NCBI GenBank assembly: GCA_965660795.1
Contig: CBFIBF010000006.1
Coordinates: 1-46,852 of the forward strand
Direction of reading: 5' to 3'
DNA length: 46,852 nucleotides
From: Gammaproteobacteria bacterium
GTDB lineage: Bacteria > Pseudomonadota > Gammaproteobacteria > GCA-002705445 > GCA-002716945
A model generated the notes under the pieces. That model saw only the letters and a program-made list of their open reading frames with translations, made no database searches and had not been told where the DNA came from. Position numbers and translations under genes: made by a program. This document shows, piece after piece, positions 473-42,907 of the stretch; position 1 is the stretch's first letter; the number at the start of each line of letters is the position of its first letter.

Positions 473-502
473 ATGTCAAATCTCATAAGTAAGCATTATA
501 AT
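473..502 (+). promoter_or_regulatory. Putative sigma70 promoter for the peptide/rhodanese operon
   Basis: ATGTCA (473-478, 4/6 match to -35), 18-nt spacer, perfect TATAAT (497-502); AT-rich background weakens the call. Confidence 0.45.
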
Positions 503-547
503 ATTCATAATTCAATCAGTGCTTAAAATAAAGGAGATTTTTACACA

Positions 548-700
548 ATGAGAAACTACTTTTTGCTATTAGCAATGCTTATTATGAGTATTTCAATATC
601 TCAACCATCGTTTGCAGATAATGAAATAACCCCAAATATAATATTTGCTGAGGATGGGGAAAAAAAGTCTTCAGATGATGAAGAGCCAGATTGTGAATAA
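548..700 (+). CDS. Small secreted acidic peptide, 50 aa, C-terminal DDEEPDCE with single Cys (not in ORF track)
   Basis: Manual translation MRNYFLLLAMLIMSISISQPSFADNEITPNIIFAEDGEKKSSDDEEPDCE*; SD AAGGAG at 531-536; Sec-type signal (basic N-terminus, hydrophobic core, P-S-F-A|D); stop 15 nt before the rhodanese start. Confidence 0.85.
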   Translation: MRNYFLLLAMLIMSISISQPSFADNEITPNIIFAEDGEKKSSDDEEPDCE

Positions 701-715
701 TTAATGGGAGGAGAT

Positions 716-1396
716 ATGTTAAAAATTAAACATAACGTATTATCAGCTGCTCTACTCTCTTTTGTTCTTGTATCGTTTTCTGCATTTGCAGGTAAACCAG
801 TTGCAATTTCAAAAGCAGATGGTCCAAATTCACTTGAATTAGGACTTTCAGTATCAGTTGGTGAACATAAAATCATGAGAAACCAAGATAACAGTGCAAC
901 AGTTAATCCTGCTTTTGCTAAAACTTCTAGACCTTGTCCGCCATTTTGCATTCAACCAATGCAATTAAGACCAGGTATTGAAACTCTTGGTGAACAAGAA
1001 TTAATTCATTATGCTGTTATGATGAGTAAAGGACAAAAGATGCCAGATGGCTCAGAGATCATGCTTATAGACTCTAGAACACCTGATTGGGTCGCTAAAG
1101 GAACAATCCCTGGTGCAGTGAACTTACCTTGGACTCTTTTGAGTGAAAGAAAAGGTGCGGATCCGCTATCTATAGCTGAATTAATGACTAGTAAATTTGG
1201 CGCTAAAGAGCAAAATGGGCTTTACTATTTTGATGATGCAAAAACCTTAGTTTTGTTTTGTAACGGAATGTGGTGCGGTCAATCACCTAATAACATTAAA
1301 AGTCTACTAAGATACGGATATCCAGCAAATAAAATTAAATGGTACCGTGGTGGTATGCAAAACTGGGAAAACTTAGGATTTAATACCGTTAAATAA
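716..1396 (+). CDS. Secreted/periplasmic rhodanese-domain sulfurtransferase, SoxL-like
   Basis: Start moved to ATG 716 (SD GGAGGAG 707-713); signal peptide ending AFA|G; motifs RPCPPFCIQPM, IDSR, GTIPGAVNLP, FCNGMWCGQS, WYRGGMQNW. Confidence 0.88.
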   Translation: MLKIKHNVLSAALLSFVLVSFSAFAGKPVAISKADGPNSLELGLSVSVGEHKIMRNQDNSATVNPAFAKTSRPCPPFCIQPMQLRPGIETLGEQELIHYAVMMSKGQKMPDGSEIMLIDSRTPDWVAKGTIPGAVNLPWTLLSERKGADPLSIAELMTSKFGAKEQNGLYYFDDAKTLVLFCNGMWCGQSPNNIKSLLRYGYPANKIKWYRGGMQNWENLGFNTVK

Positions 1397-1413: not shown

Positions 1414-1448
1414 AAGCAGCACATGATTAAATGTGCTGCTTTTTTTTT
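1414..1448 (+). terminator. Rho-independent terminator of the peptide/rhodanese operon
   Basis: Stem AAGCAGCACAT / ATGTGCTGCTT with loop GATTAA, followed by a T-run to 1448. Confidence 0.9.
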
Positions 1449-1454
1449 GAAATT

Positions 1455-4400
1455 ATGAAACAACTTAATAAAGGTTTCAATGTTGTAAAAAATATTGTTG
1501 GCTCCTCTTATATCATTGAAATAGATGAGCTATCAAAAAAATATAAAAGTACACTAATAATTTTAGACAATAATCATCAAATTGATGCTTTATATAATGA
1601 ATTATCAAGACTATATAAATCAAAAAAAATTCTTAAATTTCCAAATTATGGACTTGATGATTATAGCAACGTCGCGATTGACAAAGATATAATTAAAGAC
1701 AGATATGAATGTTTGATAGAGTTATCTCTTAATGCTGACAATAAAATAATAATTACATCCTACAGGTCAATATTTTACAAAATTCCACAATTAAATGAAA
1801 CATTAAAATCATGGAAAAAAATTGACAAGTACATAAAATATAACGAACTTATAGATAGATTAAAGTCTTTTAATTATGAAAAAACATCTAAGGTTATTGA
1901 GCCTGGTCAATATCGAATATCAGGATCAATTGTAGACTTCTTTTCTATATCTTCACATGATCCTGTAAGAGTAAATTTTTTTGAAGATAGTATAGAATCT
2001 TTAAAAATATTTAATTCAACTACTCAATTAACAAAAAATGATATTGATAGCAGCATACTCACATCTGAGTGCATTTATCACTTAGATCAAAAAAATATTG
2101 AATTTTATAAAGCAAACGTAAAAAAATATTTTGATTCTGAATATGTCGAAGATATTGAGTATGAGAAGGTTATTTCAAATGATAGTAAAAATTATATTCA
2201 TAACCTAATCCCTATGCTCTTCAGAGAAACAGAGTCATTAATATCATCGCTTGGTAATAATTTAGTTTGCTTCATGAACAAAAATTTTCATGAAGAATAT
2301 AATGACTTCAGAAATACATTAAATAAAATCTATGATAATGAAATATTTAACAGATATCTTATTAAACCAGATGAACTAATAATAAGTGAAAAAGATATTG
2401 AACATATTATCGACAATAATTATTTTTATATAGCATCTGATTATATGAAAGATATGGATTTTCATAAATCTAGCTATACAACTGTACCGTCACTGTCTAT
2501 CAATTATAATTATAAAAATCCATTTATAAATTTAGAAAAAGTTATTTTTAATACTGAATATAATTTTATATTTTTTATAGAAAGAAGTGATAATTATAAA
2601 ACATTAACAGACTACCTAAATTCTCAAAATATTGAATTCTATGAAACGGATAATATAGGTATTTCAAGTAATAAAATTCAAATAATGAGAGAACATATAA
2701 ACGAAGGATTTATTGATAATAATAAAAAAATTATCTATGTCAGCTCCAATGATCTTTTTGGACTTATTAAGACACGATTATCTTCTAAAGAAATACTCAA
2801 ATCATCAGTTATTGATAACCTTACTCAAATAAAATTCAATGATTATATTGTTCACCAAGAACATGGAATAGGAAGATATAAAGGTCTTGAAATCATGAAT
2901 ATCGAAAATAAAGTAACAGAATTAGTCAAGATTGAATACGCAGATAATAATAATCTTTATATGCCTATTACTTCTTTATCTTTAATACAAAAATATATTG
3001 GAAATACTGGAATCAATACTAAACTTTCAGAGTTAGGGACAGACAGATGGCTAAAAGTTAAACAAAGAGCTAAAAAGAAAATTGAGGATATTGCTGCTGA
3101 ATTACTGACCATTCAAGCACAAAGAGAACTTAATAAAGGTTATAAATTTAATGTAGATGCACATGAATATGGAAAATTCTGTAATTTGTTTCCATATGTT
3201 GAAACAGACGACCAATTAAGCAGCATAAATCAAGTGATTGAAGATATGTGTTCATCAAAAGCTATGGATAGAGTTATCTGTGGAGATGTAGGTTTTGGAA
3301 AAACAGAAGTGATACTGAGGGCCGCATTTGTTGCAATTAATAATAATAAACAAGTGGTTGTGATAGTACCTACAACTGTACTAGCTAAACAGCATTACGA
3401 TACATTTACAAAAAGATTTATAAATTATGATACTAAAATTGAATTGATGACACGTGCAGTTTCACAAAAAGAAAAAATAGATATCAAAAATAATTTGTTA
3501 AAAAGTAAAACTAATATAGTAATAGGTACTCATGCATTATTGAATAAAGAAATTAAATATGCAGATTTAGGATTATTAATTATAGATGAAGAGCATAAAT
3601 TTGGCGTTAAACATAAAGAATCTATTAAAAATATTAAAAATAATATTGATGTTTTGACATTAACTGCAACACCTATTCCTAGAACTCTTAATAATGCTCT
3701 CTCAGAAATCAAAGATATGAGCATTATTAATACTCCTCCTATAGGAAGAAAAAATATACAGACGAATATTATTAATAAATCAGAAAGTGAGATTAGAGAA
3801 TACATAGATCGTGAAATAACTAGAGGTGGACAAGTTTTATATATTCATAACAGAATTGAAACTATGAATGACGAGATATCATATTTAAGAGAAATAAATT
3901 CAAATTATAAAATTGATAATGTTCATGGAAGAATGTCAACACAACAAATTCAAAAAGTGATGAATAGTTTTTTGAGTGAAAAAACAAACATACTTATTTG
4001 TACAAGTATAATTGAAAGCGGCTTAGATATGACTAATGTAAATACAATTATAATAAATAATGCTCAAAATTTTGGTTTATCTCAACTTCATCAAATTAGA
4101 GGTAGGGTTGGAAGAAGTGCAAAACAAGCATATGCAGGAATGATAGTTGATGATCAAAATAAACTTACAAATGAAGCTCAAAAAAGGATGGATGCATTTA
4201 TAAACACCAACAGTTTAGCCGGAGGACTAGATATAGCTAGTCATGATCTAGAAATTAGAGGTGCTGGTGAACTTTTAGGGGAGGAGCAAAGCGGACAAAT
4301 TACTGAGATTGGTTATGGCATGTATACCTCTATGCTCTCACGTGCTGTTAATCGGCTTAAGAATATTGATGAAGCAGATGATACAAATCAAGTTGAAATT

Positions 4401-4823
4401 GACGCGTTCGAATCAACATTAATTCCTCAAGATTATATAGAGGATATATTTCAAAGGTTGGATTTTTATAAGGATATCTCAAGCGCTACAAATGATCATA
4501 CTATTAATGAAATTATGACGAAATTAATTGATATATATGGACCTATACCAGAACACTTGTTAAATCTCATAGATCTTAGCCGAGTAAAAATTGCAGGAAG
4601 CGCATTAGGTGCGCAAAGAATAAAAATTAATAGAGATAATGTTGTAATAGTCCTAAATGATGAAAATTCAATAGATACTGAAACTCTTGTAAATATATAT
4701 ACAAATTCAAAAAGAATTAAAATTATCAATAGCAATCAAATTAAATACTCGATTGAATCAGATGGAAGTTTCTCAAATATTTGTTCTGAAATCATAAAAG
4801 TAATATCTGAAATTACGTGTTAG
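1455..4823 (+). CDS. mfd: Transcription-repair coupling factor Mfd
   Basis: CarD-like RID (YIVHQEHGIGRY), GDVGFGKT, DEEH, TATPIPRT, QIRGRVGRS, DLEIRGAG TRG motif; ATG 1431 lies inside the terminator stem so 1455 is preferred. Confidence 0.96.
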   Translation: MKQLNKGFNVVKNIVGSSYIIEIDELSKKYKSTLIILDNNHQIDALYNELSRLYKSKKILKFPNYGLDDYSNVAIDKDIIKDRYECLIELSLNADNKIIITSYRSIFYKIPQLNETLKSWKKIDKYIKYNELIDRLKSFNYEKTSKVIEPGQYRISGSIVDFFSISSHDPVRVNFFEDSIESLKIFNSTTQLTKNDIDSSILTSECIYHLDQKNIEFYKANVKKYFDSEYVEDIEYEKVISNDSKNYIHNLIPMLFRETESLISSLGNNLVCFMNKNFHEEYNDFRNTLNKIYDNEIFNRYLIKPDELIISEKDIEHIIDNNYFYIASDYMKDMDFHKSSYTTVPSLSINYNYKNPFINLEKVIFNTEYNFIFFIERSDNYKTLTDYLNSQNIEFYETDNIGISSNKIQIMREHINEGFIDNNKKIIYVSSNDLFGLIKTRLSSKEILKSSVIDNLTQIKFNDYIVHQEHGIGRYKGLEIMNIENKVTELVKIEYADNNNLYMPITSLSLIQKYIGNTGINTKLSELGTDRWLKVKQRAKKKIEDIAAELLTIQAQRELNKGYKFNVDAHEYGKFCNLFPYVETDDQLSSINQVIEDMCSSKAMDRVICGDVGFGKTEVILRAAFVAINNNKQVVVIVPTTVLAKQHYDTFTKRFINYDTKIELMTRAVSQKEKIDIKNNLLKSKTNIVIGTHALLNKEIKYADLGLLIIDEEHKFGVKHKESIKNIKNNIDVLTLTATPIPRTLNNALSEIKDMSIINTPPIGRKNIQTNIINKSESEIREYIDREITRGGQVLYIHNRIETMNDEISYLREINSNYKIDNVHGRMSTQQIQKVMNSFLSEKTNILICTSIIESGLDMTNVNTIIINNAQNFGLSQLHQIRGRVGRSAKQAYAGMIVDDQNKLTNEAQKRMDAFINTNSLAGGLDIASHDLEIRGAGELLGEEQSGQITEIGYGMYTSMLSRAVNRLKNIDEADDTNQVEIDAFESTLIPQDYIEDIFQRLDFYKDISSATNDHTINEIMTKLIDIYGPIPEHLLNLIDLSRVKIAGSALGAQRIKINRDNVVIVLNDENSIDTETLVNIYTNSKRIKIINSNQIKYSIESDGSFSNICSEIIKVISEITC

Positions 4824-42683: not shown

Positions 42684-42757
42684 CGGAGACGAAGGGACTC
42701 GAACCCTCGACCTCCTGCGTGACAGGCAGGCATTCTAACCAACTGAACTACGCCTCC
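42684..42757 (-). tRNA. tRNA-Asp(GTC), CCA not encoded
   Basis: GGAGGCG TA GTTC..GAAT G CCTGC CT-GTC-AC GCAGG AGGTC GAGGG TTCGAGT CCCTT CGTCTCC G; followed by TGA rather than CCA. Confidence 0.97.
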
Positions 42758-42830: not shown

Positions 42831-42907
42831 TGGTGGGTGATGTAAGAGTCGAACTTACGACCTCCGCCTTGTAAGGGCGGCGCTCTAACCAGCTGAGCTA
42901 ATCACCC
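42831..42907 (-). tRNA. tRNA-Val(TAC)
   Basis: GGGTGAT TA GCTC..GAGC G CCGCC CT-TAC-AA GGCGG AGGTC GTAAG TTCGACT CTTAC ATCACCC A CCA. Confidence 0.98.

Follow-up and report, generated by a model that had tools for sequence, protein, structure and literature searches.

A small gene directly ahead of a periplasmic rhodanese

The DNA considered here comprises positions 1-46,852 of the forward strand of contig CBFIBF010000006.1 (assembly GCA_965660795.1), from a Gammaproteobacteria bacterium of the family GCA-002716945 lineage, and this whole stretch of 46,852 nucleotides is called the window. The host genome is 1.0 Mb in size, has a G+C content of 32% and is 92% complete. Near the start of the window, an open reading frame (ORF) of 50 codons encodes a putative secreted peptide with an acidic, cysteine-containing tail, and 15 nt past it begins a gene for a periplasmic rhodanese. 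The small ORF is a real gene under selection at the protein level, linked to the rhodanese gene and in the same orientation, and its product may be a carrier of sulfane sulfur. The features of the pair are the following:

548..700, + strand: peptide ORF of 50 codons, with ATG at 548 and TAA at 698-700
532..536, + strand: Shine-Dalgarno sequence AGGAG of the small ORF, 11 nt ahead of its ATG
548..616, + strand: signal-peptide-like segment, residues 1-23 (MRNYFLLLAMLIMSISISQPSFA), recognized by a crude rule, with predicted cleavage after A23
617..679, + strand: variable mature part (from the alignment), fast-evolving, with a hydrophobic patch IIFAE and then a linker of K, E, D, G and S
680..700, + strand: conserved tail E-E-P-D-C-E and stop, with Cys49 at 692-694 (from a 221-sequence profile)
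716..1396, + strand: periplasmic SoxL-type rhodanese of 226 aa with a signal peptide (PF00581)

The full translation of the ORF is MRNYFLLLAMLIMSISISQPSFADNEITPNIIFAEDGEKKSSDDEEPDCE. An earlier note, made from the sequence by itself, had described the ORF as unannotated, and its coordinates, translation and countable details were all correct. Using the rhodanese gene as the anchor for the comparison of loci, a relative was found in 22 of the 25 genomes of the host's family (the host included). In all 21 family genomes that could be assessed, a small ORF ending in EEPDCE or EEPECD lies directly 5' of the rhodanese on the same strand; in the 22nd, the contig is broken inside the rhodanese gene, leaving the upstream region not assessable. 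The first 40 or so residues of these family peptides diverge to 30-60% identity, and no frameshift or stop, the kind of decay that the note had suggested looking for, was seen in the small ORF at the homologous loci of the 21 genomes.

The linkage extends well past the family. A scan with one genome per species gave at least 577 confirmed rhodanese relatives among 600 pattern matches, and 80 of these loci were kept. Under a strict tail pattern, 50 of the 80 have a plus-strand ORF just upstream that ends in P[DE]C[DE] and a stop, while variant tails such as NPEDDCE/D, EEEPDC-stop, EELEE[TS]CD and EEPDCR occur among the other 30. After removal of four duplicates, four fragments, three overlapping copies and one paralogue of 33% identity, 98 non-redundant loci remained, and a looser rule assigned a peptide ORF to 73 of them; five are preceded by soxA and the gene for the SoxAX-binding protein (SAXB), and 20 have neither. 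These 20 include two loci almost without upstream sequence (L022, L078) and three with variant tails that were left uncounted (L065, L071, L110). In the last of these, from Gamma proteobacterium HIMB30 (L110:3756-3944), the upstream small ORF ends in ...AELEDSCSDEGESL, and its Cys is eight residues from the C-terminus. The tail has possibly drifted here; the relatives L063 and L102 end in EELEE[TS]CD. Translation signals also accompany the family: 43 of the 73 homologous ORFs have an SD-like 4-mer at -17..-7, in comparison to 265 of 2905 (9%) random ATGs from the same loci. In an even sample across the class, consisting of 150 families other than the host's that are not fully independent of one another, four strong full-length peptide matches were found, each directly 5' of the rhodanese. 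Sequence records name Candidatus Thioglobus, Arenicellales, Thiohalomonadales and Ectothiorhodospiraceae, among others, as carriers of the pair.

A peptide profile built from 52 sequences was searched against 1.84 billion representative proteins (E <= 0.001), revealing 270 clusters at 50% identity. The best 150 matches are all 41-95 aa in length, and in 149 of them the Cys is within the last two residues; in the one exception, P0203, 18 more residues follow EEEEPDCE. These lengths speak against the suggestion in the earlier note that the tail also occurs as a C-terminal tag on larger proteins, as does the host genome, in which the 548..700 ORF itself is the only one of 3691 ATG-initiated ORFs of at least 30 aa to carry an EEPDCE-type tail. 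Nine longer candidates that share words with the tail were considered, none of which scored, and no fused form was found.

The family has so far been overlooked by gene callers and family libraries. The peptide had no Pfam or NCBIfam match at E <= 0.01, none of the 17 database clusters containing it bears a name, and in the ESM Atlas it matched only clusters of the type "hypothetical protein", below 0.9. A literature search found no account of such a peptide, with supplements and much of the sulfur-oxidation literature outside its reach, and a text search for the tail motif returned unrelated words only.

Anatomy and conservation of the peptide

The N-terminus of the peptide, with Arg2, a hydrophobic core and an SFA-D junction, agrees with a Sec signal peptide under a crude self-made rule (n-region, h-region and AXA). 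The rule is passed by 69 of 73 homologues as well, in line with the signal peptide that the note had proposed. The predicted mature part, residues 24-50 (DNEITPNIIFAEDGEKKSSDDEEPDCE), contains 11 Asp and Glu residues, two Lys and one Cys in the penultimate position, as counted before, and has an isoelectric point (pI) of 4.05. An AlphaFold2 model from a 52-row alignment contains a helix at residues 2-14 only and no secondary structure at residues 15-50 (predicted TM-score 0.29), which is compatible with the view that the mature peptide is probably disordered.

Within the variable part, a hydrophobic patch with acidic residues is semi-conserved across homologues as IIFAE, VIFAE, IIFAD, VVMAD, IVAAD and other versions. 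What the note had taken for a second cleavage site, between IFA and E, is rather part of this patch, and nothing shows cleavage there. Between the window peptide and its nearest relative (L108), seven of eight nucleotide differences are nonsynonymous, giving a ratio of nonsynonymous to synonymous rates (dN/dS) of 1.66 on just these eight differences, and all of the residue changes fall outside the tail. Against a 62%-identical relative, the dN/dS of the window peptide is 0.10, with dS saturated.

The tail is the most constant part of the family. A profile right-anchored on the Cys and comprising 221 unique peptide sequences reads E 73%/D 19%, E 86%, E 99%, P 98%, D 79%/E 20%, C 100%, E 52%/D 45% and stop, or [DE]EEP[DE]C[DE] as a family-wide pattern. 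The conservation of PDC on which the note had staked its proposal is therefore clear (P 98%, D or E 99%, C 100%), and the Cys is the sole invariant residue of the peptide alignment. Among 71 loci, Pro is encoded by CCA in 21, CCT in 21, CCG in 19 and CCC in 6, the Cys codon is TGT in 27 and TGC in 44, and the stop codon is TAA in 44, TGA in 14 and TAG in 13. Since the codons for Cys, Pro and Glu vary freely while the residues stay, selection acts at the level of the protein. The position of the Cys is nearly as constant as its identity, with exactly one residue past it in 216 of the 221 sequences (about 98%), and peptides that end at the Cys itself are confined to two of 73 locus ORFs and three of the best 150 profile matches.

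A second Cys is found 13-37 residues upstream of the tail Cys in 145 of the 221 sequences. It is absent from the window peptide and present in same-genus relatives (QCDVIFAEE). In addition, one clade of the rhodanese tree, comprising nine loci (L053:3713-3901, L059:3713-3901, L046, L050, L055, L058, L070, L074 and L085), has a distinct peptide subtype with five Cys, ...WCEANQNACVTWCE(S/T)..(D/E)ICxEPECD, ending for example in ICQEPECD. Record names place Candidatus Thioglobus and Arenicellales among its carriers. Four of the five Cys could form a small disulfide knot ahead of the EPECD tail.

The SoxL-type rhodanese

The anchor gene matches the rhodanese domain PF00581 with an E-value of 3.5e-13 (50.3 bits), and its family, with at least 7993 database matches, retains about 60% identity across Gammaproteobacteria. 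Its Cys residues lie in a CPPFC motif (C74, C78) and in the active-site loop CNGMWCGQS (C182, C187), and all four are invariant in 67 sequences. The AlphaFold2 model has a mean predicted local distance difference test score (pLDDT) of 77, with a confident core and a CPPFC loop (residues 70-81) below 50. A Foldseek comparison matched the model to the single-domain sulfurtransferases TSTD1, RDL2 and YgaP with probability 1.0, and a sequence search of the PDB gave nothing below E 0.03. The enzyme is basic, with a pI of 8.85 (median 8.6 over 67 sequences) as opposed to 4.05 for the mature peptide.

The family is termed SoxL-type on account of gene position. At one locus (L066), the gene order is cytochrome c-soxX-soxY-soxZ-soxA-SAXB-rhodanese-soxB, which places the rhodanese where SoxL is found in Allochromatium vinosum; the order published there is soxXAKL, as given in an excerpt of the paper (PMC3368242). 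The same excerpt proposes that SoxL takes the sulfane atom off SoxY (PMC3368242). The window rhodanese lies outside any sox cluster, with the peptide gene on its 5' side, mfd on its 3' side and soxXYZA on another contig (C1). In the rhodanese tree, the five sox-linked loci form one clade (support 100/99) nested among peptide-linked loci, and the peptide is spread over the whole tree with 11 label changes, at least seven of them forced.

In one genome of the same genus (G003; L021/L027/L029, L108), the rhodanese is in three pieces, with one TAG and changes of frame, next to an intact peptide ORF. These breaks may be sequencing errors rather than decay, as the assembly is apparently a long-read one.

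Host and sulfur oxidation context

The host genome encodes SoxX, SoxY, SoxZ and SoxA above cut-off on contig C1; SoxY scores 161.9 bits and ends in VKVTIGGCGG. It also has dsrA (615 bits) and dsrB. Neither SoxC nor soxCD was found in the 92% complete host genome, and across the host's family SoxC is above cut-off in none of 24 genomes, with dsrA in 19 of the 24. soxB was likewise not found in the host assembly. It is present in nine of the 12 genomes of the genus, and the host gene probably lies in an assembly gap. Directly 3' of soxA on the same contig (L114:7359-7859), an ORF of 166 aa without an NCBIfam match occupies the place that the gene for SAXB (also SoxK) has in L066.

In the class sample, the rhodanese is found in the genomes of 24 of the 150 families. 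SoxY is present in 20 of these 24 in comparison to 51 of the 126 others (Fisher p 1e-4), and dsrA in 15 of 24 in comparison to 30 of 126 (Fisher p 4e-4). None of the five sampled genomes with a full-length peptide match encodes SoxC, too few genomes to count.

A probable transcription unit

The arrangement of the two genes is suggestive of a bicistronic unit, to which the following features belong:

473..502, + strand: sigma-70-like promoter match ATGTCA-18-TATAAT, agreeing at 10 of 12 positions
706..713, + strand: Shine-Dalgarno sequence GGGAGGAG of the rhodanese gene, 6 nt past the peptide stop
about 1414..1449, + strand: predicted intrinsic terminator, an 11-bp stem with a T-run (1 found, 0.4 expected)

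The promoter is only a candidate because shuffled sequences give as many matches (five found, 4.9 expected). The GGAGGAGAT stretch of the rhodanese Shine-Dalgarno sequence is kept in relatives, where it is translated as "GGD", and translation of the peptide ORF may be coupled to that of the rhodanese. Assembled contigs of RNA libraries from four studies cover positions 535-1149, 581-1419, 622-1406 and 627-1296, so that each spans the junction of the small ORF with the rhodanese gene. Their outermost ends are at 535 and 1419, and those of two studies stop at 1406 and 1419, near the terminator at about 1414 that would close the two-gene unit. Such contigs hint at a bicistronic transcript and do not prove it, given that RNA libraries may hold DNA; parts left uncovered are uninformative, and depth is unusable.

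Neighbouring genes

The pair in the window is flanked by an aguB-like gene and by the gene for the transcription-repair coupling factor:

1431..4823, 3' of the rhodanese: mfd (transcription-repair coupling factor)

A survey of 82 rhodanese loci found mfd, DsrE-like, TlpA-like and housekeeping genes to be the most frequent neighbours elsewhere. The mfd gene lies 3' of the rhodanese in 30 of the 82, the window and the Olavius Gamma 3 symbiont (L107:4721-8227) among them; this adjacency is old and without an obvious functional reason. Directly 3' of the rhodanese in 16 of the 82 loci, 14 of which have the peptide, is a gene for a signal-peptide-bearing DsrE/DsrF-like protein (PF02635, without an NCBIfam name; for example L041:4799-5302 and L095:4762-5391). 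The family is known chiefly from sulfur relays in the cytoplasm, and this protein is possibly one of its periplasmic members. A gene for a TlpA/ResA-like thiol:disulfide oxidoreductase stands beside the pair in 15 of the 82 loci (for example L053:3103-3591, minus strand), including all nine five-Cys loci, where it is divergent from the peptide gene. In the window, neither a DsrE-like nor a TlpA-like gene is adjacent, and the nearest TlpA homologue is on another contig.

One clade without the peptide (L103, L105, L106, L107:3364-3660 and L093, including the Olavius Gamma 3 symbiont) has a different gene 5' of the rhodanese, whose product (...GEPPISEWVYGSFRVYFE...) is periplasmic, conserved, about 100 aa long and free of Cys, with no family match. 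Farther along the window, two tRNA genes (RF00005) lie on the minus strand at 42684-42757 and 42834-42907, scoring 69.7 and 74.3 bits.

A possible role in sulfur transfer

By analogy with the C-terminal arms of SoxY and DsrC, and in the absence of homology to either, the peptide may be a "swinging-arm" thiol standing on its own, which would take up or give away sulfane sulfur by way of the rhodanese, a reading to which a probability of about one half is given. According to this model, the ORF product would be a precursor exported by the Sec pathway, from which the signal peptide is removed to leave a mature form of about 27 aa that is strongly acidic and unstructured, with its thiol one residue from the C-terminus in an EEP[DE]C[DE]-COOH tail. 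Made from one bicistronic unit together with the basic periplasmic rhodanese, the peptide would be a mobile arm without a body, whose polyanionic flexible tail presents the thiol to the enzyme. Sulfane sulfur would then pass between rhodanese Cys182 and peptide Cys49, in either direction, to give a soluble peptide persulfide or polysulfane, and it could originate from SoxY-bound sulfur, thiosulfate or polysulfide. Given a host with soxXYZA and dsrAB in which no soxCD was found, the sulfane sulfur left on SoxY has to be removed and handed on; in such a cell with a truncated Sox system and Dsr, the peptide could serve as the acceptor or shuttle that clears SoxY and passes the sulfur along. Export, cleavage, rhodanese binding, persulfide chemistry and the direction of transfer are all steps inferred from sequence and context.

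Several observations point toward a sulfur carrier. The linkage of peptide and rhodanese recurs across the family, the public loci and the tree, the peptide Cys is invariant, and the partner is a sulfurtransferase by fold, its active-site Cys likewise invariant. The two products are of opposite charge, the rhodanese basic and the peptide acidic, and RNA-library contigs of four studies bridge their genes. The hosts carry Sox and Dsr genes, with SoxY and dsrA enriched in rhodanese genomes, and DsrE/DsrF-like and TlpA/ResA-like genes join the pair in subsets of loci. Moreover, SoxY and DsrC provide a precedent for sulfur carried on the Cys of a flexible C-terminal arm. The "redox thiol" that the earlier note listed among possible roles comes close to this reading, in that the penultimate Cys does appear to be functionally important. 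As a whole, that note held as far as the secreted Cys peptide is concerned and not for the tag, and it missed the rhodanese 15 nt downstream and the sulfur oxidation genes.

Other observations weigh against a sulfur carrier. An upstream peptide is lacking at 25 of the 98 rhodanese loci, five of them inside sox clusters, and in five genomes with a peptide-less rhodanese the profile found no convincing peptide elsewhere, only partial matches resembling signal peptides and one acidic stretch within a frame of 2127 aa. The rhodanese can thus work without the peptide. Furthermore, no residue of the rhodanese tracks the presence of the peptide, and the net charge of the rhodanese core, with a median of +2 where the peptide is present and 0 where it is not, shows nothing clear because the ranges overlap. 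Rhodanese genomes of the class sample are not depleted in SoxC (3 of 24 in comparison to 16 of 126, Fisher p 1). In one genome that is 99% complete (G092), the peptide and dsrA are present and no SoxY was found, so a strict link to SoxY fails there; this genome has three rhodanese-family copies with the peptide gene 5' of the best one, and the pair may be independent of SoxYZ. The model also leaves the CPPFC loop of the rhodanese, which is poorly modelled, unaccounted for. Lastly, the bridging RNA contigs are possibly derived from DNA, and the predicted signal cleavage rests on the crude rule.

Of the alternatives, the one that competes most closely, though it is considered improbable, is that the peptide is a redox partner or protective cap whose thiol forms a mixed disulfide with rhodanese Cys182/Cys187 or with the CPPFC motif. 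In oxic seawater, such a cap would protect the active site against over-oxidation; alternatively, the peptide would resolve a disulfide of the enzyme. A periplasmic thioredoxin-like reductase would then recycle the peptide, which would not itself carry sulfur onward. The four invariant Cys of the rhodanese agree with this idea, as do the TlpA/ResA-like genes beside the peptide at 15 of 82 loci, all nine Cys-rich ones among them, and the second Cys in 145 of 221 peptides, which is able to form an intramolecular disulfide. However, the window peptide has a single mature Cys and no TlpA-like gene adjacent to its own, the nearest homologue being on another contig, and the rhodaneses in sox clusters manage without a peptide. 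This alternative overlaps with the sulfur carrier, because a persulfide carrier also needs redox recycling. Less likely by some distance is a regulatory leader, a peptide without a job of its own whose C-terminal residues stall the ribosome and thereby tune translation of the rhodanese. SecM and MifM are leader peptides of this type that monitor secretion and translation. A signal peptide and a conserved C-terminal motif with Pro and acidic residues, directly 5' of the rhodanese and with the peptide stop 6 nt ahead of its Shine-Dalgarno sequence, would suit such a leader. Nevertheless, the distance from the stop to the rhodanese match varies between 15 and about 640 nt among loci (overstated where the match starts inside the protein), a spread that does not fit a single coupling mechanism or the fixed geometry between arrest site and ribosome-binding site of the SecM and MifM leaders. 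Additionally, the invariant residue is a Cys, suggesting chemistry rather than contacts with the ribosomal tunnel, some family members end at the Cys itself, and a scan of positions 1-1500 found no Rfam element. To our knowledge, the established monitor leaders regulate Sec or YidC components, and the gene downstream of the peptide encodes a sulfurtransferase instead.

The earlier note also listed a disulfide-linked dimer, a conceivable form of the peptide. Two further proposals, both mentioned in some form in that note, seem very unlikely. The dense carboxylates around one thiolate in the tail, and the five Cys of the Cys-rich subtype, could be taken to mean that the peptide binds Cu, Zn or Fe in the periplasm for buffering or delivery, yet it contains no His or Met and only one Cys in the window, no metal transporter or metalloenzyme is among the conserved neighbours, and the conserved partner is a sulfurtransferase in hosts that oxidize sulfur. 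Equally little probability is given to a precursor of the ribosomally synthesized and post-translationally modified peptide (RiPP) kind, or of a signalling peptide, that is matured with involvement of the rhodanese. While its small size, leader-like N-terminus, hypervariable core, conserved end and tight linkage to one enzyme recall such precursors, the N-terminus resembles an ordinary Sec signal rather than a RiPP leader, it is the tail and not the core that is conserved, and the conserved neighbours include no genes of the radical-SAM, YcaO, lanthipeptide or peptidase/export kinds.

Comparison with known systems

The proposed sulfur carrier has features in common with SoxY. Both are periplasmic (by prediction, in the case of the peptide) and found in the context of thiosulfate and sulfur oxidation, and in both a reactive Cys would lie in a flexible C-terminal segment near the end. 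An excerpt of one study states that SoxY carries sulfur on the Cys of a C-terminal swinging arm (PMC11237559). Unlike SoxY, however, the peptide has neither the SoxY domain (PF13501/TIGR04488) nor a SoxZ partner, its tail is an acidic EEPDCE rather than GGCGG, and its roughly 27 aa are without a globular body or predicted structure.

DsrC (or TusE), a protein of cytoplasmic sulfur relay, has a Cys in the penultimate position, as does the peptide with Cys49 of 50, and a second Cys upstream; the latter has a counterpart in the 145 family members with an upstream Cys and not in the window peptide. The penultimate residue of DsrC, Cys111, carries a persulfide, according to a partial text of the source (PMC3397948). 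In contrast to the peptide, with its signal-peptide-like N-terminus, lack of a fold and lack of a DsrC family match, DsrC is folded and cytoplasmic, and the spacing of the second Cys in the peptide family is variable (13-37 residues).

The neighbouring enzyme resembles SoxL of A. vinosum in being a periplasmic single-domain rhodanese and, at L066, in a gene order matching soxXAKL. The window gene differs in its location outside the sox cluster, and the likeness to the A. vinosum gene is drawn from position rather than from an alignment with Alvin_2171.

Finally, the peptide may be compared with "RSH", the soluble thiol of the glutathione amide persulfide proposal, which would transport sulfane sulfur between periplasmic sulfur and Dsr. 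In A. vinosum, glutathione amide was not detected, glutathione is unsupported as RSH and the identity of the carrier is open, as far as the available portions of two papers indicate (PMC4213376, PMC3397948). The peptide differs from a tripeptide metabolite in being a gene-encoded polyanion of 3 kDa, and it would probably not enter the cytoplasm unless a dedicated transporter took it up, none of which is linked to the pair. A bolder and doubtful extension of the sulfur carrier model is that this family constitutes a gene-encoded RSH of sulfur oxidizers of the Dsr type: a periplasmic perthiol carrier, possibly the end-group of stored polysulfane chains, that would receive from the SoxL-type rhodanese the sulfane sulfur which a truncated Sox system leaves on SoxY and would deliver it to a sulfur store or to a membrane step feeding DsrEFH, DsrC and DsrAB. 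If so, this would be the first case of a swinging arm that carries sulfur by itself, with no protein body. For the removal of sulfane sulfur from SoxY in the absence of SoxCD, and as the thiol leading from the periplasm to Dsr, the peptide is a concrete and testable candidate. In any case, a conserved small gene in a probable operon with a SoxL-type rhodanese is present in abundant marine sulfur oxidizers, as part of a widespread family of small proteins.

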